Shown here in pieces: positions 7,292 through 50,134 of a DNA stretch of 64,000 bases (position 1 is the stretch's first letter; each line of letters begins with the position of its first letter). Origin of the DNA: Candidatus Micrarchaeota archaeon (GTDB lineage Archaea; Micrarchaeota; Micrarchaeia; Micrarchaeales; CABMGC01); assembly GCA_028866835.1 (NCBI GenBank), contig JAGWHJ010000001.1, positions 4,636-68,635 on the forward strand, written 5' to 3'. The notes beneath the pieces were generated by a model. The model was not told where the DNA came from. It searched no databases and worked only from the letters and a program-made list of their open reading frames with translations. Both the position numbers and the translations under genes were made by a program.

Positions 7292-7618
7292 TCACTTGTG
7301 CTTGAACTCTATTCTTGTTTCAGGCTTGCTCGTGAGCTTGCCGAGAACGTCCTTGAGCTGCTGCTCGGTAAGCTTCCCGTAGAGCTTCTTGCTCTGAACC
7401 ATCGCAATTATGAGGTCGACAAGCTGCGAATACAGCTCGTAGTTTGAAACACGCACATTCATCAGCCTTTCATAGGCATCCGGCATTATGAACTTCCTTA
7501 TTATGGACCGCTTCTGCTGCTCTATCTGCAGTTCGCGCAGCCTCTTTGCCATCGCTTGCCTTACTTTCTGCTGTTCCTCGTTGTTGCCTTCATTCTCGCT
7601 CTCTTGCGCCAACTTCAA
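7292..7618 (-). CDS. DNA-binding protein, PDCD5/TFAR19 family
   Basis: The pattern IIRKFIMPDAYERLMNVRV...LTEQQLKDVL matches the archaeal dsDNA-binding PDCD5-like family. It sits in the conserved neighbourhood between S19e and L39e. Confidence 0.7.
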   Translation of the reverse strand: MKLAQESENEGNNEEQQKVRQAMAKRLRELQIEQQKRSIIRKFIMPDAYERLMNVRVSNYELYSQLVDLIIAMVQSKKLYGKLTEQQLKDVLGKLTSKPETRIEFKHK

Positions 7619-8031
7619 GCACCCTTGCTTATCTCGTTAGCTATCTTGTCAAGGAAGGACTTTCCCGTGCTCGTTATGACCCTTCCCTGCTTCGTGCTCT
7701 TCACGTATCCGAGCTTCTCAAGGGCAGTGAACGCATCCTTTATGATGCTGCCTCCTGCCCTGTAGTTGTGGTGCCTAGTAACTACGTGGCCTTTCTTGCT
7801 TCCGTACTTGAGCCTGAGCTTCGAGATGCCGACAGGCCCGTTTATGTAGACCTGCCTTATGACCGAGGCGCACCTGACGTACCAGAAATCCGGGTCTGCC
7901 GGTGGCCTCTCCCTGCCGGAGCCCGTCTTGACAAGCTGTATGTAAGGCGGCTTCTTTATGCCTGCCGTCTTCAGCTTCTCTGCCGTCCGCTTTATAAGCT
8001 CCGCGGTATCAACTTCAAAAACGTTTGCCAA
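7615..8031 (-). CDS. rps19e: 30S ribosomal protein S19e
   Basis: PPDPDFWYVRCASVIRQVY and GGSIIKDAFTALEKLGYV are typical S19e motifs. Confidence 0.9.
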   Translation of the reverse strand: MANVFEVDTAELIKRTAEKLKTAGIKKPPYIQLVKTGSGRERPPADPDFWYVRCASVIRQVYINGPVGISKLRLKYGSKKGHVVTRHHNYRAGGSIIKDAFTALEKLGYVKSTKQGRVITSTGKSFLDKIANEISKGA

Positions 8032-8145
8032 TATAACACCCTGTAGGATGCGTGCCTATCTATAAGATGCAGTAGATATATAATTATTCTGCTGTCTTAA
8101 TATGTACAATAAGCAGCACATTAGTATCTAAAATGAAGCTTATAA

Positions 8146-8430
8146 ATGTTTATGGTGGATCCCATGAAGGCAAATTTTATAGAGGATGAGACGAAAAGCC
8201 TGATTGTTGAATTCAGCGGCATTGACAGGAGCGTGCTCGAACTGATAAAGAGCAAGCTCATGGAGAGCAAGGACATCGAGTTCGTCAGCGTGAACAAGGA
8301 GCATCCGGAGACCGGCACACCGCGCCTGATCGTTAAGTCCAGCAAGAATGCAAGGTCGCTTGTCCTGAAGGCGATAGAGGAGGCCCAGGAGGAGATGAAG
8401 GAGCTGGCCTCGCACGTGCCGAAGAAGTAA
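8146..8430 (+). CDS. rpoL: DNA-directed RNA polymerase subunit L (Rpo11)
   Basis: Small protein whose SVLELIKSKLMESKDIEFVSVNKEHPETGTPRLIVKS matches the RpoL/Rpb11 pattern (HT..N.L...L..d..V.fa.Y...HP). A TATA-like cttataaa at 8137-8144 suggests the real, possibly leaderless, start is the ATG at 8164. Confidence 0.65.
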   Translation: MFMVDPMKANFIEDETKSLIVEFSGIDRSVLELIKSKLMESKDIEFVSVNKEHPETGTPRLIVKSSKNARSLVLKAIEEAQEEMKELASHVPKK

Positions 8431-8434
8431 TCCG

Positions 8435-8992
8435 ATGCTGAAGAGCGGCGTCAGGATAATAGCATTCGAGGATTCGCCCATCCTGAAGGGCAGGAAGGAC
8501 GTACTTGTCGTTGGGGTCATAGGCAGGCAGGACATAATAGAGGGCGTGCTCTCGTTCAGGGCAATTGTTGATGGGAACGACGCTACATCCAAGCTCGCAA
8601 GAGCTGTCAAGAGATCCAGATTCGCGGGCCAGATAAGGCTGCTAACGCTAAACGGGATAACAGTGGCAGGCCTGAACATAATCGACATGGCGAAGCTTAA
8701 CAGATCGCTAGGAATCCCGGTGCTTGCGATAACGAGGCAGAAACCAAACCCTTCGAAGCTGATGGAGGCGGTAAGGCATCACTCAGGGAAGGATTCCGCC
8801 AAAAAGATTGCCGTAATAAAGCGCACGAAGGAGGCGATGCTCCTGCTTAAGAGGTCGGGCCATTATTTCCAGTGTGTGGGCATCGAGAAGAAGGACCTGG
8901 CGAATTTTGCCGATCTTTCCGTCTCGCTGCTTAGGCTTGGGCATATCATAGCGAGCGGCGTGACAAGCGGGGAATCGCATGGAAGGATGTAA
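8435..8992 (+). CDS. DUF99/UPF0215 family protein (EndoV-like fold)
   Basis: The N-terminal VRIIAFEDSP...VVGVI pattern and overall size resemble archaeal UPF0215 proteins. Confidence 0.55.
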   Translation: MLKSGVRIIAFEDSPILKGRKDVLVVGVIGRQDIIEGVLSFRAIVDGNDATSKLARAVKRSRFAGQIRLLTLNGITVAGLNIIDMAKLNRSLGIPVLAITRQKPNPSKLMEAVRHHSGKDSAKKIAVIKRTKEAMLLLKRSGHYFQCVGIEKKDLANFADLSVSLLRLGHIIASGVTSGESHGRM

Positions 8993-9086
8993 TAATTATC
9001 GCCTTTGGCCTTATATCTTTGCAAGGTATTAATAAACTAATTCAAAACTTTTAAAAATCAATTCGCTCATCCTTAAATTGATTTTG

Positions 9087-10334
9087 ATGGCAGTGAGCCA
9101 AAGGCGGGTCGGTGTTACTACTGATGGCATCAGGTTTTCAAGGTTGAGGTGCCCGGATGGTGAGGAAAGATACCTATTAAGGGAAGGAGACATCCCGGGC
9201 CTGAAACTTGACGGCCCAACCTCACACAGGCTACTTGGCGAGGCGGGCTTGGTACCGGTTGAACAGAATGGAGAGCTGCCTTTTCTTGCACGCTATCCGG
9301 CAATTAGGGAGACGTTGACTGAAGGCGGGGAGCACACACGTTTCTATACCGCAGGGAGTGGACAGCTTTACCTGCCCGAATTTCAAGGTTTAGATGACGA
9401 TACAGGCAGATTGAAGGAGGGCAGGAGACATCCAGAGATCACAGTAAGGAATTTTGATGGGCCGCATCCGTTGTTGCTCATAATAGGATCGGATGAGGAA
9501 TCCGATTGGGCAGGCTACAGGTTCGTACGCGCTGCGGATGTGGAGCCAAGCGCTGGCGCCAACATAGTATACGGCAAGAAAATAAATGGTACGTACGCTA
9601 TGGGGGAGTTCTGGCGTCAGCAGGGATGGGTAAATGCGGACGGCACGCTTTCTCGTGCGCGATGGGCTGATTCTGGAACAAGGGTTGCAGCAATAAGATT
9701 CCTTGTTGAGAATGTATTGGATAAGGACCCGCGTGAGGTCACAAACGAGGATTTTAGGTCGAACGGACTTTGGGGACTTTTAACACACTTTTATAATAGT
9801 AGCAACTATGCTGCTGTTTCTGCGGCGTTCCCCGAACTTAATATAAGGGGATGGGAGATGATATGCACGCCTAGGGGCATATACCCTTCTCCAGAGAACA
9901 GAGTAGCCGCAGTAAGAGAGCTGGTGAAAGCATCAGGCAAAGGCGATCCCAGAGACCTTGCAAGAAGTGATTTTGAATCACACGGGCTTAGAGGGCTTTT
10001 ACACGGTCATTACAATGGCAGCACTTATGCGGCTGTTGTGGAGGCATTCCCTGAACAGATGATTAAAGAATGGGAGATGGCCATGACCCCCATGCGTTTC
10101 TACGAGTCACCGGAAAACAGGGTAGCTGCAGTGAGATGGCTAGCAGAGAAATTAGGTAAGGACCCAAGGGAGATAACACAAAAGGATTTCAAGTCAAACA
10201 GACTTTTGGGGCTTTTGGATTGGCATTATAACGGCAGCCCTTACGAGGCATTGCTGGAAGCAGGATTAGTTACAAAAGAAGATGAATACTTTATGAGGAA
10301 TAGAGGTCCGGTCATGAAATTAAGAAGGTCATAA
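9087..10334 (+). CDS. hypothetical protein with unknown N-terminal domain and three tandem 73-aa helical repeats
   Basis: Long ORF in an AT-richer islet. The repeat consensus is ENRVAAVR.L....GKDPR....DF.S.GL.GLL..HYNGS.YAAV.EAFPE....WEM. The ATG at 9087 is in frame with the track start TTG at 9078. Confidence 0.6.
   Translation: MAVSQRRVGVTTDGIRFSRLRCPDGEERYLLREGDIPGLKLDGPTSHRLLGEAGLVPVEQNGELPFLARYPAIRETLTEGGEHTRFYTAGSGQLYLPEFQGLDDDTGRLKEGRRHPEITVRNFDGPHPLLLIIGSDEESDWAGYRFVRAADVEPSAGANIVYGKKINGTYAMGEFWRQQGWVNADGTLSRARWADSGTRVAAIRFLVENVLDKDPREVTNEDFRSNGLWGLLTHFYNSSNYAAVSAAFPELNIRGWEMICTPRGIYPSPENRVAAVRELVKASGKGDPRDLARSDFESHGLRGLLHGHYNGSTYAAVVEAFPEQMIKEWEMAMTPMRFYESPENRVAAVRWLAEKLGKDPREITQKDFKSNRLLGLLDWHYNGSPYEALLEAGLVTKEDEYFMRNRGPVMKLRRS
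9678..10280 (+). repeat. three tandem coding repeats (about 219 nt / 73 aa each) inside CDS 9087..10334
   Basis: Repeat units start at 9678, 9897 and 10116 (the 9897 boundary was checked against the codons cca gag aac aga gta). Confidence 0.8.
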
Positions 10335-14644: not shown

Positions 14645-15658
14645 CTAGTATGCGGAGTCGACCGTCGGCCAGTCTATGTAGCGCCTCCTCTCGGCTTCCT
14701 GCTCTTTTATCTCGGAAAATCCGCTTGCGCTGCTTACGGCAAGCACGATGAGGTTTATGAACAGCAGGAAGGTCATGGCAACGAGGTATATGTTTGACTT
14801 GTTGAGAATGTAGAAGGATGGGCTGCTGAAGTACTGGTAGCTGATGAATATAAGACCCATGCCGCAGACAATTGCAGCGAACGTGCTTACCTTCCTTCCG
14901 GGCCTGAAGAGCAGCAGGCCGGCCGCCAGCGACAGGAATCCTATGAGGATGTTCAGCACGGGAATGTCATAGCTCGAGATAAGGTTGTACAGGGCCATGA
15001 ACTCGGCAGGTATGGCGGTTGCCGTGCTGACGGTCTGTATGAAAGATCCGAAAAGGAATGCCATCTGCTGGTACATGTAGTAAAGCATGACCATGCCTAT
15101 CGCCAGGAAGATCAGCGAAGAGCCAAGGCTCAGGCGGTTCAGGCTCTGCTTCTTTGCGCTCGGCGCCCTTATCGAGGCCTCGTCTATGTCCTTTATGCAG
15201 TAGTACTTGCCGTTGAATAGCATTATCTCGGCATAGCAGTAGTTGAGGTTGCATATCTCACACTTAGCGAAAGCAGCCCTCCACGGATGGTTTATGCACT
15301 TTGCATTCTTTGGCACGTTCCTCTGTTTCTCTGTTGCGGTCTTGGCAGCGGCAACAGACTTGCTTTCGGACAGGGGAGCGGCAGAGATTGGCGCCGCTGG
15401 CTTGGCGAGAGGCGCAGGAGGCTGCTCAGCCTGCGCGGTGACTTCCTTTTGGGCGGCAGGCTTAGGCTTTGGTTGATTTATATTGATCCAGGGCGGTGCG
15501 CTGACTGCAGGCAGTTCATCCTTGGTAGTTTCTACCACATAGTCCTTGCTTTTCTTCGACTGCGCAACCTGGTTTATCGCACTTTCAGTAGCCTGTGAAA
15601 CGTGACCCCTAAGCCTGAAGATCAGGAGGTCTTCAGAGCCTTCATCGACCAAAACCAC
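14645..15658 (-). CDS. membrane protein with cytoplasmic Pro/Ala-rich linker and B-box-like zinc finger
   Basis: KCINHPWRAAFAKCEICNLNYCYAEIMLFNGKYYCIKD (C-x2-H...C-x2-C...C...C) is followed by about 5 hydrophobic helices. Confidence 0.55.
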   Translation of the reverse strand: MVLVDEGSEDLLIFRLRGHVSQATESAINQVAQSKKSKDYVVETTKDELPAVSAPPWININQPKPKPAAQKEVTAQAEQPPAPLAKPAAPISAAPLSESKSVAAAKTATEKQRNVPKNAKCINHPWRAAFAKCEICNLNYCYAEIMLFNGKYYCIKDIDEASIRAPSAKKQSLNRLSLGSSLIFLAIGMVMLYYMYQQMAFLFGSFIQTVSTATAIPAEFMALYNLISSYDIPVLNILIGFLSLAAGLLLFRPGRKVSTFAAIVCGMGLIFISYQYFSSPSFYILNKSNIYLVAMTFLLFINLIVLAVSSASGFSEIKEQEAERRRYIDWPTVDSAY

Positions 15659-16048: not shown

Positions 16049-16663
16049 TTGATTCGATACCAATTAGAGAATAATGGTGATTCGATAAAGATACTCGTTA
16101 TAAGCAATGTAAACGGAGTCACCGATTCGCTCATAGACGGCATGGATGTACCCAATGCAAACATAATTGCAAGGGATTTCGAGGGGGACGTTGACGCCCT
16201 CTCCAAGCAGGTTGCGAGGCTCTTCAAGGACAGGAAGTTCGATTACATAGTGGTAATACCAGACGATGTCATAGAGGCCGGGATAAACCTTAACAAGATA
16301 GAAGGCGCGAGGTCCGTAGTCTGCAAGTTCGAGGCGGACGCCGAGGCCGCAGCGGCCCACAAGGCCAACATCGTGATAATGGACGACCCTGATTCCCGCA
16401 TCTTCAACGACCTGATGGGATCGCTGCTGAAAGGACATTCTGGATCTTCTTCAAGGAGGGAGCCGGACAGCAGGCAGGCATCGATCTTCGGAGGCTTCAA
16501 GAAACCTCAGCCGCAGCAAAAGGAGACAAAGAGAGTGCATGAGGAGAAGGCGGAGGAAAAAGACGTGGATAAGGAAGAAAGGCAGCAGCAGGCTCCACGA
16601 GCCGGGAAAAGGAAGGGCGGGCTCGGCGGGATGCTGAAGGACTACCTGGGCATAATGGATTGA
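16049..16663 (+). CDS. hypothetical protein: RpiB/LacA/LacB-like alpha/beta domain (catalytic motif not conserved) plus basic low-complexity tail
   Basis: KILVISN...FDYIVVIPDDVIEAGINLNKIEGARSVVC...HKANIVIMD parallels the RpiB layout, but IPDD replaces the CGTG segment. Only a TTG start is available. Confidence 0.35.
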   Translation: MIRYQLENNGDSIKILVISNVNGVTDSLIDGMDVPNANIIARDFEGDVDALSKQVARLFKDRKFDYIVVIPDDVIEAGINLNKIEGARSVVCKFEADAEAAAAHKANIVIMDDPDSRIFNDLMGSLLKGHSGSSSRREPDSRQASIFGGFKKPQPQQKETKRVHEEKAEEKDVDKEERQQQAPRAGKRKGGLGGMLKDYLGIMD

Positions 16664-16665
16664 GC

Positions 16666-17874
16666 TTACCTCAATGCGGTAGACAGGATATCTGCCTCTA
16701 TCTTCTGTTCCTTCCCGCTTTCACCGCATCCGATCCTTACCGAAAACGGCTCTATTGCCTCACGAGGTATGCTCCTGAAGGCGTTAAGGCCTATGACCTT
16801 TGTATCGTAGCCGCCGTTTTCCAAAGGTGAGAGGAACCCGAATCCAACCCAGGGAGGGATATAATTATTGCTGCTTTTTCCATCTTTCAGTCTGTACTCT
16901 ACCCGACACATGCCTAACGAAGGGTCAGTTCCAGGAGGGTATGGGACAAACCCAGTTTTTATCGGGGCTATGACATTGCCAGAAAGGTCCATTGTCGAGC
17001 CGCCGAACAGTTTGAATTGGTATCGGGCAAGCGCAGTGCCGAGGTATTTGCAAACAAAGCCAATCTTCTCCTCGGTTGTAGCGTCCGGGTGCTCCGTCGA
17101 AACCCGGTCTATATAATGGTCTCTCATGGCCTGGGGCATAGTGCCCGTCCATCCGGCCTCTTGAAGCCTCTTGTATTCTTGGAGGGTATGCCACTTTGAG
17201 CTGTTGGGTGCCCTCGATGATGCAATCCAGTAATCGAAGATCAGTCCTGCATTTTCCGCGGCGCGCTCGATGAATGCGGCTGCCGTCACTCCCCTGCGTC
17301 CAAGTATCCTCGACTCGTCGATAAAGCTTATGTGCCCGGAGATGCCCAACGCATCGCATATGCCGTCGAGAGACCTCGAATACAGCTCGGTGAGCATGCC
17401 CAGATTGGCGATTTTTCCGGCAAGTATTCTTTCGGTGATGTCCTCCCTTATCACGCCGATGCTTATTCCAGGGGCATATATGCCAGTGACTCTTTGGTGG
17501 AGCTCCTCGAACCGCCTCAGTCCAAGCAGGTCAGCGACGTCTGCAACCACCCTGTCTGGCACTTGGCCGTATCCTTTAGTTGCACTCCATAGCGTGGATA
17601 CCTGTATAGGTGCACCTACCTCTATCCATCTGGCGACGCGCTCACTCATCTGGTGCCTTTGTTCCTCTGTTGGACTGCACCCTATCCTTGTTTTCCTAGA
17701 TGCGAAAAGGACGTCAGAAACCTGCCTTGCGGCAGTCTCTATGCAGTCAGGCCGCGTGGGGCCGCACCTTTCGGGCTCCCGTATCCTTAAGCAGTCTTCA
17801 AGCGATCTTGCAATCGCTTCTTCTCTTGCGGAGGCCTTAGAAGCGGCACATGTAAGACTCACGTTCCTTATCAT
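16666..17874 (-). CDS. hypothetical enzyme with PvcA/Dit1 (isonitrile synthase family)-like motif pattern
   Basis: A 402-aa ORF, clearly the coding strand because the antisense ORF is Ser/Leu/Pro-rich. PIQVSTLWSATKG...PD...L.RF..L......IYAPGISIGVIRED has the spacing I recall for PvcA (PI.........KS...PD...L.FL......YAPGA.I.I.SDG). Unverified. Confidence 0.3.
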   Translation of the reverse strand: MIRNVSLTCAASKASAREEAIARSLEDCLRIREPERCGPTRPDCIETAARQVSDVLFASRKTRIGCSPTEEQRHQMSERVARWIEVGAPIQVSTLWSATKGYGQVPDRVVADVADLLGLRRFEELHQRVTGIYAPGISIGVIREDITERILAGKIANLGMLTELYSRSLDGICDALGISGHISFIDESRILGRRGVTAAAFIERAAENAGLIFDYWIASSRAPNSSKWHTLQEYKRLQEAGWTGTMPQAMRDHYIDRVSTEHPDATTEEKIGFVCKYLGTALARYQFKLFGGSTMDLSGNVIAPIKTGFVPYPPGTDPSLGMCRVEYRLKDGKSSNNYIPPWVGFGFLSPLENGGYDTKVIGLNAFRSIPREAIEPFSVRIGCGESGKEQKIEADILSTALR

Positions 17875-17975: not shown

Positions 17976-18500
17976 TTATGAGTATTTCCTTGCGCTTACC
18001 TGCGTTGAGAAGTTGCCAACGTATGTCTGCATCTGGGGCGGCTGGCAACTGTTCTTGTTGTTGCTCGGGCATGCTGTTACGTTGACGTAGAGGATGCCGC
18101 TTATCACCGTGCCCGTCTTTATCTGCGTGTTGAATATGACATTGCACGTTATGCCGTTGCCTTCGGCGGCAGCGGCGGGCCTGCATCCTCCGCTGTAGTT
18201 TCCGTAATTCATGATGGACACGTTTATGTTGGGGTTCAGGACAAGGTAGGATTGAGAGTTGTTGAGCTTGACGCTTACGTTAGTAAACATCGCGTTCGAG
18301 TATGCGAAGGCGCCATTGCACGTTACCCCGTAGGCGAACTGGCACTGTCTCGAAGCGAAAGAGCTCTGAGCAGTGATGTACTGGAACATGAATGCGACCA
18401 TTATGCCGACGATTATCAGGGCCCATCCGTATGTTACAAGGAACTCCATGGCCGACTGGGCCTTGGGCCCGTCATGCAATGCAAAAACGCGATGCCTCAC
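17976..18500 (-). CDS. class III signal peptide (archaeal type IV pilin-like) protein
   Basis: GPKAQSAMEFLVTYGWALIIVGIMVAFMF has the same KAQS-x-x-E(F/Y)L motif as the 3593..4114 protein. GTG start at 18500, with an alternative TTG at 18479. Confidence 0.65.
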   Translation of the reverse strand: MRHRVFALHDGPKAQSAMEFLVTYGWALIIVGIMVAFMFQYITAQSSFASRQCQFAYGVTCNGAFAYSNAMFTNVSVKLNNSQSYLVLNPNINVSIMNYGNYSGGCRPAAAAEGNGITCNVIFNTQIKTGTVISGILYVNVTACPSNNKNSCQPPQMQTYVGNFSTQVSARKYS

Positions 18501-22405: not shown

Positions 22406-22870
22406 TTGATCGGTTATATGGAATTTAGACAGCATGCAAGAAGGAGGATTGTCAATGCGAGCATGGTCGTGGCTGGAGAAGCTGCATTGCAGTACCTCAA
22501 GATACGTGAAGACGACATTAACCAAAAAGGCGTGGCACTTAAAAGGGGGGTGTTAGTTGCCGTAGCTGCGATTGATTTATTGAAACAGATAGGTTACAAT
22601 CGACTTAGGGAGGGTTTGGATAATCCAAAGCAGCAGACTTATCTTGACTTGGGGAAAGATGCGGTCGAGATCGGAGATGGAATAGCGGTTACAATGAGAG
22701 GCATTACGAAGGGATCGAAACTGCAAACGGGAATTGGGGTTCAGAGGGTTGTAGCTGGCAATTTAAATGCATATATGAATCTAAGGCGGCTTGGGGGCAT
22801 AAGGCTTGGTGAGGAATTAGAAGAGATGCTAAGAGATAGAGTTCACAAACATGGTGGAATACGGCTCTGA
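22406..22870 (+). CDS. hypothetical protein (154 aa)
   Basis: ORF only, in AT-richer sequence next to tRNA-Leu. Confidence 0.4.
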   Translation: MIGYMEFRQHARRRIVNASMVVAGEAALQYLKIREDDINQKGVALKRGVLVAVAAIDLLKQIGYNRLREGLDNPKQQTYLDLGKDAVEIGDGIAVTMRGITKGSKLQTGIGVQRVVAGNLNAYMNLRRLGGIRLGEELEEMLRDRVHKHGGIRL

Positions 22871-44662: not shown

Positions 44663-45280
44663 TTATCGCTTCAATGTTATCAAAACCTGGTCCGGATCCA
44701 CGCCCTCGCCAACACCATAGCCTTTGATACGCCCTTTATCGACGAACTCGTCCAATCGTTTCCCCACTGAACCCTTTAAGAATTCGTTAATTGGCTCTGC
44801 CGCTATTCTTTGGACGGCTTCGTTCGCAAGTATGTCCTCTACTACCTTCCTTAAAATGGTGGTATAGACGCCGTTTCTCCTTGCGGAATGATCGACGTAT
44901 GCAGAAGTTATGTCTATCCTACTTCTGCCATAGGCCGTAGTTATGATGTAACCAAGAATCTGACCTGTTAAGGGATGAGTTGCAAAATAGTCGGCTGAGT
45001 TGGGTCCGTGATATAGCGGTTCATCTTCCTCCAGCTGCAGGCTGCACCTTGTGAATTCATCAAACTCACGGCGCTGGGCAGGGCTAAGGGCCTTGTAATC
45101 AATCCTTGTGACCTCTATCTCAAGCCCCGGTTCGTTTGAAGGACCAGCTCGCGCCTTCCCGATTACATCCAATGGATCCCTGATTCGCCTTGGCATTTTA
45201 ACCATAGAGATGGTGGACTTTTTGATATTTACGCATTTTGGCCCATTTGGCGGCTGTTCAAGAGCGCGCTTATCCCGCAT
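44663..45280 (-). CDS. hypothetical protein, possibly GNAT-like acetyltransferase fold
   Basis: LGYIITTAYGRSRIDITSAYVDHSARRNGVYTTILRKVV weakly resembles GNAT motif A. AT-richer region; the start is uncertain. Confidence 0.3.
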   Translation of the reverse strand: MRDKRALEQPPNGPKCVNIKKSTISMVKMPRRIRDPLDVIGKARAGPSNEPGLEIEVTRIDYKALSPAQRREFDEFTRCSLQLEEDEPLYHGPNSADYFATHPLTGQILGYIITTAYGRSRIDITSAYVDHSARRNGVYTTILRKVVEDILANEAVQRIAAEPINEFLKGSVGKRLDEFVDKGRIKGYGVGEGVDPDQVLITLKR

Positions 45281-45794: not shown

Positions 45795-46220
45795 CTACAG
45801 CCTGAAGTGCTTCCTGAGAGGCAGCAGCTTGGTTACGGGCATCTCCTCGTAGTCCTCGTAGCCATCGACATAGATGAGGCATATGTCATCGTTCGGTATA
45901 GTGGTCTGCTTTAGCGCGTCCTTCGCAAAGGCCCTCGCCTTCGCGTCGAATATGTCCAGGAGCGTCTCCTCCTGCTTCACCGTGTCGTCGTCAGTGTCGC
46001 GCACGTAGACCAGCTGTATGTCCGTTGAGTTCTCGTTTATGTTGGAGAGCGCGAATCCCTTGAAAAGCTCCTTGTCGTAGAGGGCTATGTAATCTAGGCT
46101 GTCGCCCACGTACTCGAACATCGCGGTCATGCCGCTGAATTCGCCGGTTTTCTCGAACCTCGAGCTCCACGGATACAGATCGAATATCGTGACCTTTACG
46201 GGCAGGTTCTTGTTTGGCAA
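45795..46220 (-). CDS. hypothetical acidic protein (141 aa)
   Basis: ORF only, 20 nt downstream of the ferredoxin ORF on the same strand. Confidence 0.45.
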   Translation of the reverse strand: MPNKNLPVKVTIFDLYPWSSRFEKTGEFSGMTAMFEYVGDSLDYIALYDKELFKGFALSNINENSTDIQLVYVRDTDDDTVKQEETLLDIFDAKARAFAKDALKQTTIPNDDICLIYVDGYEDYEEMPVTKLLPLRKHFRL

Positions 46221-46240
46221 TTTACCACATCTGCTTTTGG

Positions 46241-46690
46241 CTATCTCATGTCAGGCTCGTCCATCGTCTGCGTCATCGACTTCCTGCGGTGCGGCCTGTA
46301 CACGTATTCGTTGCCCCACGGGTCCCTGACCTTCACGCGAGTGGGCCTTACCTTCGTGAACTTGGACAGCGCGAACTCGTCCTTTACCGGCTCCTCTGTC
46401 AGCATGGGTCCCTGCTTTACGGCGTATCTTGGCTCCTTGTCTGCCTGCAGTATCGTTATGCACGAGACAGGGCATTCCTCTGGGCAGATCATGCACCCTA
46501 TGCACTTGTTCACCTGTATCGGGTATTCGGTCATGTCGAGCGTGACCGTAGCCGTTTTTGTGGAGGATTCAACGTTCTTGTGCCTCGGCCTTGTGAAATC
46601 AAGCGCATTCACGGGGCAGGTGTCGCCGCATATGCCGCACTGTATGCATATGTCCTTGTCGAAGGTGAATTTGTACGGCGTTGTGCCACC
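46241..46690 (-). CDS. 2x[4Fe-4S] ferredoxin domain protein lacking a canonical start codon (see finding)
   Basis: CIQCGICGDTCP (hand-translated, 46613..46690) and CIGCMICPEECP (in track ORF 46241..46612). No ATG, GTG or TTG lies between the in-frame TAG at 46691-46693 and the GTG at 46612. Confidence 0.6.
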   Translation of the reverse strand, partial: GGTTPYKFTFDKDICIQCGICGDTCPVNALDFTRPRHKNVESSTKTATVTLDMTEYPIQVNKCIGCMICPEECPVSCITILQADKEPRYAVKQGPMLTEEPVKDEFALSKFTKVRPTRVKVRDPWGNEYVYRPHRRKSMTQTMDEPDMR

Positions 46691-47443
46691 CTACAGCTTG
46701 TCCTGCTGGGAAGGAGGCGGGCCCGGTGCCATGGGCTGCTTCACTATCGGCTTCGCGATCTTAGGTATCATGCCTCTCGGCATGTTCCCTCCGGTAAGCC
46801 CGTAGAGTATCGCTATGCCCCCTTCTATCAGGAGTATCGTGAAGCATATGTAGAATGAATACATTGCAAGTGTCGGATTGTTCTGGGAATCGAAGTTCTG
46901 GTTGAAGTAGCCCCATATGTTTGAGGTCGAGGTCGACACCGTCGCAGGGACTGGGTTGGTAAGGACCACGGCGCTCTCTGTGACGAAGACCGTGCCCATG
47001 ATGTAGAGGCCAGCCCCTATGACTACAAGCACTGTTATTATCGTATTGTATATTGGCTCCTCATCTGTGTCCTTCAGCAAGAGCAATACCAGTGCCGCGG
47101 CAAAGACATTCACTGCCAGCAGCTCGAACGGCACCGCTATGGGGAAATCCTCGTATATTCCTGGGTAGAAGAGCTCGAACCCGAGGAACACTATCAGGAA
47201 GATGCTGGCATCCCTGAGTATCACGAAGAGCAGCCACCAGATGTCTGCTGCAAGCCTAAGTGTGAATTTCCTCAGTATCCTGAGGAAGTAGCCCCGTGCT
47301 ATCTGTATGGAAACGGCAAGTATCGTAAGAAGCGTCAGCAGTACCGCTATAGTATTCTCCGTGTATGTTGCGCCTATCGCGACATAGGCAGTCTGGTTCA
47401 CGGGCCCCGCCTGCAGCAGAACCGGTACTAATGACAGATCCAC
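46691..47443 (-). CDS. polytopic membrane protein with Pro-rich C-terminal tail, hypothetical
   Basis: About 6 hydrophobic helices. It ends in KQPMAPGPPPSQQDKL followed by TAG, in frame with the ferredoxin domain. Confidence 0.6.
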   Translation of the reverse strand: MDLSLVPVLLQAGPVNQTAYVAIGATYTENTIAVLLTLLTILAVSIQIARGYFLRILRKFTLRLAADIWWLLFVILRDASIFLIVFLGFELFYPGIYEDFPIAVPFELLAVNVFAAALVLLLLKDTDEEPIYNTIITVLVVIGAGLYIMGTVFVTESAVVLTNPVPATVSTSTSNIWGYFNQNFDSQNNPTLAMYSFYICFTILLIEGGIAILYGLTGGNMPRGMIPKIAKPIVKQPMAPGPPPSQQDKL

Positions 47444-49351: not shown

Positions 49352-50134
49352 TTGACCAAAATGAGATTGCTTAGGGTACGTGATGCCGCGAAAACGCAGC
49401 CGACAATGCAAAGCATTCTAGACGAAAAGGATATCTTAAGACAAGGGGAGTTGATATCCCAAGTGAGAGACCCGAAATTGCAACTTAGGCTTGCACAGTC
49501 AGAAGATTGGGATATCAGAAATGAATTGGCTCGTAATAGGAACTTGGCTAATAATGTACAGCATGTACTTGCTTCAGATAGCCACCCGTATGTTAGGAGC
49601 AACCTTGCAAAACATACCAGAATACCTAAGATACAACTTGTACTTGCAACTGACCGTTCATCACGCATAAGACAAAGTCTTGCAGGAAATGAGAATATTA
49701 CTAAAGAGGTTCAGCTGATCCTGGCTGTGGATCCATCGGTGCACGTGAGATCCGTTCTCGCTTTGCAAGGAAACAAACTGGACCCCGAGGTCATCGAAAT
49801 ACTTCTGCAAGATAAAAAGTCTGAAGTACGGCACTCTCTTGCACTTACAAAGAATACAACAGACATAGAACTATTAAAGAGGCTGGCAGTCGACAGAAGC
49901 AGAAAGGTAAAGATAGAAGTTGTGGAACGTTTGTTTTACGGTCGCCCTGATAAGAGCTTGGTTGAAGAACTGCATCCAATACTAGAAATGGATCGAGATC
50001 CAGAAGTAATAAGGGCATTGGAGCGCATGGACTTTGAGAGACAATTGATGGCAGATACACCTAAGATGATGGATCTGATTAGACGGGGCGCAACAGGAAA
50101 GGAAGTAGTAAGAGCACTTAGACGCAAGGAGTAA
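49352..50134 (+). CDS. HEAT/LRV-type alpha-solenoid repeat protein, hypothetical
   Basis: About 8 degenerate units of about 24 aa with the pattern L(A/L).D.d..VR..LA.n.n...e....L, in AT-richer sequence. Confidence 0.55.
   Translation: MTKMRLLRVRDAAKTQPTMQSILDEKDILRQGELISQVRDPKLQLRLAQSEDWDIRNELARNRNLANNVQHVLASDSHPYVRSNLAKHTRIPKIQLVLATDRSSRIRQSLAGNENITKEVQLILAVDPSVHVRSVLALQGNKLDPEVIEILLQDKKSEVRHSLALTKNTTDIELLKRLAVDRSRKVKIEVVERLFYGRPDKSLVEELHPILEMDRDPEVIRALERMDFERQLMADTPKMMDLIRRGATGKEVVRALRRKE

Follow-up and report, generated by a model that had tools for sequence, protein, structure and literature searches.

We report that a 402-residue protein, encoded on the reverse strand of a 64,000-nucleotide stretch of DNA from a Candidatus Micrarchaeota archaeon (contig JAGWHJ010000001.1; the whole stretch is called the window below), is a divergent homolog of the PvcA/IsnA/Dit1 isonitrile synthases (Pfam accession: PF05141, family DIT1_PvcA). 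The protein belongs to a sister family that is separate from PF05141 and is named in none of the libraries searched. The homology of this family is solid. Taking sequence, predicted structure and distribution together, we think it probable that the protein is a folded and active enzyme of isonitrile-synthase ancestry, which would carry out a stand-alone chemistry between an amine and a carbonyl compound. A sequence-only reading of the same DNA, made without database searches, had called the gene an orphan with a PvcA/Dit1-like motif spacing; its suggestions are taken up below where our results bear on them.

Homology to the isonitrile synthases

The open reading frame (ORF) is real and present as first described, with an ATG start (coordinates in Table 1), and its product is a 100% match to the NCBI entry "MAG: hypothetical protein KGH72_00145" (MAG: metagenome-assembled genome) of Candidatus Micrarchaeota archaeon. 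When the sequence is searched alone, its sole Pfam match is DIT1_PvcA (E=0.054, residues 110-142), which scores 13.4 bits where the cutoff is 26.4, and its best sequence match in the Protein Data Bank (PDB) is PvcA (PDB accession code: 3e59, E=0.17). The relatives are collected by an exhaustive phmmer search over 1.84 billion cluster representatives, which returns 390 representatives at E<=1e-3, 245 at E<=1e-10 and 40 at E<=1e-30; word-index searches gave just 2-5 relatives. The gene is hence no orphan. It represents a family that is large and unnamed and that often occurs on viral contigs.

From these relatives we use a family alignment of 117 sequences (A2), in which the identity averages 19% per column. 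The profile of this alignment matches PvcA (3e59) in the PDB with E=1.1e-08 and the PIsnA structures of 2025 (9dhm and 9dh4) with E of about 4e-07. Individually, 53 of the 117 members match DIT1_PvcA at E<=0.01 (best 6e-07), and none of the 117 matches any other Pfam family. The NCBIfam model NF045653/TyIsonSynPvcA is matched weakly by 10 of the 117 (best 9.3e-05). The four members that carry a fused aldo/keto reductase (AKR) domain, described below, also match DIT1_PvcA individually, with 22.2-25.7 bits that are still less than the cutoff. The comparison with DIT1_PvcA, which the sequence-only reading had named as a check of its guess, is thus not significant for the single sequence; nearly half of the members do match DIT1_PvcA, and the family profile matches PvcA and PIsnA significantly.

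The same relation is found from the side of the known enzymes. Our canonical set consists of seven isocyanide synthases (ICS) taken from plasmid and chromid records, five of them annotated and two being unannotated ORFs found by tblastn. Aligning the new family with these seven by hhalign gives a probability of 98.0% and E=1.7e-13 over 238 columns; in a more global mode the probability is 98.1% over 295 columns, with residues 37-394 of the window protein placed against residues 5-311 of a 313-residue Streptomyces enzyme. In the reverse search, a hidden Markov model (HMM) built from the seven canonical sequences finds the target as the sole match (E=2.6e-05) among 482 stop-to-stop ORFs of the window, and the same HMM matches 84 of the 117 family members at E<=1e-3. 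We therefore regard superfamily homology to the PvcA/IsnA/Dit1 isonitrile synthases, over almost the whole protein, as practically certain; a chance resemblance is excluded, and no other family that fits better is found, so that neither outcome by which the sequence-only reading would have had its guess refuted has occurred. PF05141 proper is a different matter, since the target does not reach the curated score and has neither the SDG motif nor the two C-terminal histidines.

Predicted structure

The 117-sequence alignment, which holds no canonical ICS, was used as input to AlphaFold2 without templates. The resultant model has a mean predicted local distance difference test score (pLDDT) of 94.7 and a predicted TM-score (pTM) of 0.93; a model made from three sequences reached a pLDDT of only 58 and is not used. 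In a Foldseek search of the PDB with the good model, the top eight matches are all PvcA/PIsnA chains, with E between 5e-09 and 1e-07 and a probability of 1.00, which is the outcome that the sequence-only reading had looked for in proposing this kind of structure search. These matches have TM-scores of 0.54-0.64 normalized on the target and 0.44-0.51 on the query, a root-mean-square deviation (rmsd) of 7-11 A and a sequence identity of 10-16%. The next matches are the cores of class-I aminoacyl-tRNA synthetases (aaRS) of the tyrosyl- and tryptophanyl-tRNA synthetase (TyrRS/TrpRS) type, which appear at E>=4e-4, about five orders of magnitude behind PvcA and PIsnA. According to the model, the target has the PvcA fold.

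Residues kept, replaced and gained

We compare the conservation in the 117 family members with that in the seven canonical sequences only; canonical residues are numbered as in one of the seven (L010), and the principal segments are listed in Table 1. The segments quoted in the sequence-only reading are all present in the translation (PIQVSTLWSATKG at 89, LGLRRFEEL at 117, IYAPGISIGVIRED at 132 and PPWVGFGFL at 340). At the N-terminal end, P89-I90-x9-K100 corresponds to the canonical P-I/V-x9-K of "FPxKSP" (P57 and K68), with the identical spacing that had been noticed from the letters. The two spacers that follow show the described pattern with counts that were off by one: x4 (KG-YGQV-PD) rather than x5, and x9 before LGL rather than x8. 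The "PD" picked there (P106-D107) as the start of the canonical "PDxxE" was mis-registered by five residues; the canonical D81 and E84 align to D112 and D115 in A111-D112..D115, where position 115 is Glu in 65% of the family. Y133-A-P135-G136 is the canonical "YxPG" (Y102, P104, G105). R143-E144-D145 stands in for the canonical "S-D-G", a register that is reproduced by both HMMER and hhalign, as is the guess that PPW is the counterpart of the canonical TPWH. The family consensus at the former site is x-E-D (Glu 90%, Asp 92%), such that the first of these positions stays acidic, with Glu for Asp (E144 for D113), and the invariant glycine G114 becomes D145. In the family columns, K100 is conserved in 100% of the members, D112 and W342 in 99%, and G136 and R63 in 97%.

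Other parts of the canonical core are exchanged. The canonical K74 aligns to P106, and R257 occupies the position of the invariant D203 of "FLxED". The histidine of "SIHP" (H249) is replaced by V310, at a position that is variable across the family. W342 is kept (canonical W273), and the invariant H274 that follows it is V343 in the target and Arg in 41% of the family. G259 and R198 are further positions that are conserved in the canonical enzymes alone and replaced here. At two further positions, as at E144 and D145, both families conserve a residue of a different kind (G97 for F65, E187 for L152). The replacement of SDG by RED, to which the sequence-only reading had pointed as a sign of altered catalytic residues, holds; the losses of the histidines, K74 and D203 are more telling than this change, in which the acidic residue is retained.

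The new family has in addition its own conserved features. Fourteen positions are conserved in this family alone, together with an insertion of 13 residues that carries the motif GWxG and is absent from the canonical enzymes (the hhalign gap lies opposite residues 238-250); G241, W242 and G244 of this insertion are 96-97% conserved. The residues conserved only here include R63, G65, S188, Y215, L237, Y254, Y277, R284, F309, P314-G315, R324 and G346, and R257 and R/K328 are further family-specific conserved residues.

Compared with PvcA of Pseudomonas aeruginosa (3e59) and PIsnA (9dh4, 9dhm, 9dhn), the IsnA-type L-Tyr/L-Trp isonitrile synthases of PF05141 and NF045653, the target thus shares P-I-x9-K, D-x2-E/D, Y-x-P-G, the acidic residue at "SD", the invariant Tyr and the Trp of PPW/TPW. 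Unlike them, it has both histidines, K74 and D203 replaced, Asp in place of G114, the GWxG insertion and the family set of Arg and Tyr residues.

A divergent homolog on the canonical side is found as an unannotated gene on a Microvirga plasmid (L014:2731-3843), with "AEG" for "SDG" and "LPYHG" for "TPWH". The SDG and TPWH motifs also drift inside the canonical family, as judged from this sequence, and the Microvirga homolog could be a possible intermediate.

Table 1. Position of the gene and of its principal conserved segments in the window.
Feature	Position	Strand	Basis
Coding sequence, 402 residues, divergent member of the PvcA/IsnA/Dit1 (isonitrile synthase) fold superfamily	16666..17874	-	ORF, homologs, model, hhalign
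Residues 89-145, N-terminal Rossmann-like core in common with the canonical enzymes	17440..17610	-	HMMER, hhalign, column conservation
Y165, aligned to Y131 of canonical L010	17380..17382	-	Invariant in 117/117 and 7/7
Residues 241-257, signature G241-W242-x-G244-x2-P247-x3-R251-x2-Y254-x2-R257	17104..17154	-	hhalign, conservation
Residues 309-315, F-V-P-Y-P-P-G, canonical S-I-H-P-Q-P-x-G	16930..16950	-	hhalign, conservation table
Residues 339-346, I-P-P-W-V-G-F-G, canonical T-P-W-H	16837..16860	-	hhalign, conservation table

Distribution of the family

The closest relatives of the target are found in a Pacearchaeota MAG (41% identity) and in another Micrarchaeota MAG (36%), neither of which shows synteny with the window. 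The family as a whole occurs in DPANN archaea, in a few bacteria and in many viral contigs. Four of six further members that were looked up lie on contigs with the look of phage genomes (L007, L008, L016/L017 and L019-L021 are among the member loci), with long co-directional runs of small unannotated ORFs and with Endonuclease_7, PD-(D/E)XK, AAA_24, DUF932, KTSC and DUF2786 domains. When the IMG/VR collection is scanned with one subgroup of 15 members, 18 viral loci are returned (L022-L039, with the gene at about 8001-9100 of the locus on the forward strand), on contigs of 17-223 kb. The pooled neighbors in these loci include a family-A DNA polymerase, a DNA ligase, HNH, DUF5131 and QueC, as well as the anti-Pycsar protein Apyc1, a nucleotidyltransferase of the CCA-adding type and HD domains. 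With these 18 loci and the four phage-like metagenome contigs, most of the members whose context was examined are on viral contigs. The alignment of the DPANN clade finds nothing in IMG/VR and gave just two loci in GTDB.

Since no member tested has a match in PHROGs or PADLOC, and since tblastn with a single protein of the family (P0129) finds nothing among deposited phage genomes (INPHARED), the family is absent from curated phage protein catalogues. The same single protein finds no match in IMG/VR. In a neighbor-joining tree, which is crude and carries no support values, the family stands apart from the canonical ICS; the window protein falls in a DPANN clade with members of viral context at its base, and the bacterial fusions are sister to a large IMG/VR clade. 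The new family is one of DPANN archaea and viruses, whereas the canonical enzymes are found in the natural-product clusters of bacteria and fungi.

Several bacterial members contain additional domains. Four have an N-terminal AKR domain, with fusions at L040:2513-4603, L041:152-2320 and L043:671-2623. The first of these overlaps by 4 bp with a gene for a GT4 glycosyltransferase, and another GT4 gene and a formyltransferase gene flank it. Each of the other two is followed by a convergent conserved gene of 373 residues (37% mutual identity, E=2e-96), one of the two copies of which has a weak, sub-threshold match to Glyco_trans_1_4 (E=0.005). These contexts suggest a sugar-related substrate in bacteria. 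In an 876-residue NCBI protein on a 14-kb contig (P0032), the PvcA-like domain is duplicated in tandem, at residues 48-441 and 475-865. A 1155-residue protein of Omnitrophota (P0042, L018:8001-11468) adjoins a gene for an 888-residue radical S-adenosylmethionine (SAM) protein; its roughly 590 N-terminal and 200 C-terminal residues flanking the PvcA-like domain match no domain, and its N-terminus looks like a signal peptide.

Partner genes

Is the gene accompanied by a partner, as pvcA is by pvcB? The sequence-only reading had seen no PvcB-like Fe/2-oxoglutarate oxygenase next to the gene, and this is confirmed for the whole window: a tblastn search with the oxygenase from a canonical cluster finds no TauD/PvcB-type gene in the 64 kb, nor in 25 family loci. 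As a control, the search recovers the oxygenase beside the ICS in the canonical Burkholderia locus L009 (7.5e-39). The target therefore differs from PvcA in that it lacks the PvcB/IsnB oxygenase partner whose presence is typical, though not universal, in canonical loci; a TauD-type gene is found by tblastn within 3 kb in one of six canonical loci, and the locus from which the probe was taken (L011) has one annotated beside its ICS. No cytochrome P450 gene is present among the scanned neighbors in the window. All-against-all clustering of the neighboring ORFs yields neighbor families in common only inside a single clade, that of five closely related phages.

In the Pacearchaeota locus (L001), a Flavin_Reduct gene (L001:9182-9712) lies 9 bp downstream of the homolog. 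About 650 bp upstream of the homolog is a radical-SAM/SPASM gene (L001:6037-7358) with an ORF of 76 residues just upstream of it, an arrangement that resembles those of ribosomally synthesized and post-translationally modified peptides. Neither the radical-SAM/SPASM gene nor the flavin reductase gene of this locus recurs in the other family loci. A conserved flavin-reductase partner was considered and rejected: Flavin_Reduct occurs in L001 and L041 alone, and the two proteins are mutually dissimilar at E<=0.01. The second Micrarchaeota locus has an AMP-phosphorylase-like gene (L006:5819-7399, Glycos_transf_3 and PYNP_C) at about 4 kb from the homolog. Enzymes of the AMP-phosphorylase type feed the archaeal ribose-bisphosphate/RuBisCO salvage route, and a link of this gene to a pentose-phosphate co-substrate is speculative.

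Proposed mechanism and alternatives

The next question is "what reaction would such a protein catalyze?" The IsnA/PvcA/Dit1 architecture combines a Rossmann core like that of class-I aaRS with a C-terminal beta region. In the target, the first Rossmann strand is followed by a loop that carries K100, and it is at this place that Rossmann-like folds commonly bind phosphate. We propose that the enzyme may bind a primary amine (an amino acid or an amino sugar) together with a carbonyl co-substrate that is anionic and probably phosphorylated, for which K100 and the conserved Arg residues would be candidate anion binders, and that the two substrates would be condensed through an imine. In the IsnA-type reaction, the alpha-nitrogen of Tyr or Trp is condensed with a carbon of ribulose-5-phosphate (PMC12946266; PMC7345447); by analogy with it, we give the condensation of an amine with a carbonyl compound about an even chance of being what the target does. 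The AKR fusions, the cluster with GT4 and formyltransferase genes, and the 373-residue gene with its weak glycosyltransferase match provide the link to a sugar or carbonyl substrate.

With both histidines, K74 and D203 lost, the reaction would take another course in its later steps. Because the classical histidines are gone, the downstream steps and the product probably differ; that the product is something other than the classical alpha-isonitrile amino acid is a view on which, from the residues, we stand midway between doubt and confidence. The "different chemistry" that the sequence-only reading proposed would agree with this, and we infer it in the same guarded way. The enzyme may act as a single stand-alone step. 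A precedent for a PvcA fold that serves something beyond a free isonitrile is Dit1 of Saccharomyces cerevisiae, a regular member of PF05141 whose donor substrate is still unknown and which appears to give N-formyl-tyrosine for the spore wall, with no isonitrile, so that the chemistry varies inside PF05141 (PMC7345447). Dit1 works with a partner that is not PvcB, the P450 Dit2 (PMC7345447).

Alternatively, the protein could be a very diverged but classical isonitrile synthase, which would convert an alpha-amino acid and ribulose-5-phosphate to an alpha-isonitrile amino acid and stop there, the isonitrile serving, for instance, to bind metals or as a toxin. The full-length homology, the same fold, and the retention of the N-terminal motif residues, of Y165 and of the PPW Trp would all be expected of such an enzyme, and canonical members without a PvcB partner do exist, as the count of TauD-type genes given above indicates. 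Against it stand the family-wide replacement of the canonical invariant or near-invariant K74, D203, H274, H249 and G114, the fourteen positions and the GWxG insertion that are specific to the new family, and the fact that Dit1, a closer relative, need not make an isonitrile (PMC7345447); we consider a classical synthase unlikely. The same losses, which include both histidines, together with the missing pathway partner, could also be read as those of a catalytically dead relic or of a binding protein that keeps the fold. This is very unlikely in our judgement, since K100 and Y165 are conserved in 100% of the family, D112 and W342 in 99%, R63 in 97%, D145 in 92% and E144 in 90%, a pattern typical of active sites, and since reduced DPANN genomes and compact phage genomes have both held on to the gene, some bacteria have it fused to an AKR domain, and it also occurs in a tandem duplicate. 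Because these polar and charged positions are near-invariant in a family with so low a mean identity, we take them for an active site rather than a relic, and the target is, as far as its sequence can tell, likely to be an active enzyme.

The structural search points to yet another reading, in which the protein resembles a class-I aaRS or a cyclodipeptide synthase and uses an amino acid with ATP, or an aminoacyl-tRNA. Foldseek gives TyrRS/TrpRS with E between 4e-4 and 5e-2 and a cyclodipeptide synthase (2x9q) with 5e-2, and the best matches in BFVD are TyrRS of giant viruses (6e-4). These matches are, as said, some five orders weaker than those to PvcA and PIsnA, with TM-scores of just 0.2-0.33; the tRNA-synthetase families of Pfam are matched neither by the target nor by any of the 117 members, and the translation contains no H-x-G-H (HIGH) or KMSKS motif. 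PvcA has a known kinship at the fold level with the class-I aaRS Rossmann core, which accounts for the resemblance, and the likeness of the target's Rossmann-like core to class-I aaRS (TyrRS/TrpRS) and cyclodipeptide synthases is a distant one of fold. We regard this reading as extremely improbable.

We return to an active enzyme of isonitrile-synthase ancestry with a chemistry of its own as the preferred reading, against which several points have to be weighed. The target protein itself stays below the gathering threshold of Pfam DIT1_PvcA, and it has no match in NCBIfam, including NF045653 (L-tyrosine isonitrile synthase). The moderate TM-scores and high rmsd to PvcA and PIsnA imply substantial insertions or domain shifts in the model. 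The roles given to K100 and to the arginines are putative. The gene context in the window, with its housekeeping neighbors, is uninformative.

Significance

To our knowledge, the IsnA/PvcA fold has until now served to flag natural-product clusters in bacteria and fungi. Here it is found in a sister family, named in no library and comprising no fewer than 390 sequence clusters, which is frequent in phage genomes (large ones included), is retained in minimal DPANN genomes, and keeps half of the conserved core with the rest swapped. This viral and DPANN distribution, together with the altered core, is unexpected and is not described in the literature searched. Two enzymatic routes to isonitriles are known and no more (PMC12946266). 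If the family is active, either the chemistry of the fold is widened or infecting viruses produce metabolites of an isonitrile-like or N-formyl kind, and either would be new for phage biology and genome mining. A bolder proposal, which we put forward tentatively and think rather less than probable, is that the family is a third branch of the isonitrile-synthase fold in phages and DPANN archaea, with a new stand-alone amine-modifying reaction that is used to manipulate the metabolism, surface or defences of their hosts; examples would be another N-C warhead, or an amino sugar or nucleotide-linked amine modified by a phosphorylated carbonyl donor. The window protein, being compact and confidently modelled, offers a single-gene entry point for biochemistry.

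The locus in the window

The gene is surrounded by core archaeal genes, including those for arginyl-tRNA synthetase (ArgRS), ribosomal protein S26e, NMD3 and SecD/SecF, so that the archaeal core-genome setting described from the letters holds. Its GC content equals the window mean, and at third codon positions its GC content (GC3) is 0.573, where the mean is 0.664 (z=-0.97); a recent horizontal transfer inferred from composition is rejected, as neither value gives a convincing sign of it. Markedly low GC3 values (0.40-0.50, with a window median of 0.68) are seen in the ORFs at 7546-8046, 9078-10334, 22406-22870, 44663-45280, 46214-46858 and 49352-50134. Foreign genes or non-coding shadow ORFs could account for these values; the GC3 of the target is just mildly low.

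An ORF of 204 residues (16049-16663, forward strand) converges on the target gene, and 2 bp separate the two stop codons. A Pfam match below the cutoff places an RpiB/LacAB-like domain at its N-terminal end, and its last 70 residues or so form a tail in which Lys, Glu, Arg and Gln abound; a sequence search of the PDB gives no match. When aligned to the E. coli RpiB sequence, the ORF has VIPDD where ICGTG is expected, and the catalytic Cys/Thr motif is absent. This neighbor was considered as a supplier of ribulose-5-phosphate and rejected on these grounds (the sub-cutoff Pfam match, the lack of a PDB match and of the Cys/Thr motif) and for want of synteny elsewhere.

Immediately upstream of the target and on the same strand is an ORF of 174 residues (17976-18500, reverse strand) with no Pfam match, the N-terminus of which (…GPKAQSAMEFLVTYGWALIIVGIMVAF…) has the look of what we take to be an archaeal class III (type IV pilin-like) signal peptide. 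On the other side, an ORF of 337 residues (14645-15658, reverse strand), also with no Pfam match, contains a Pro/Ala-rich region, several predicted transmembrane helices and a Cys-rich stretch (CINHPW…CEICNLNYCY…YYCIKD) that resembles a B-box or a zinc-ribbon.

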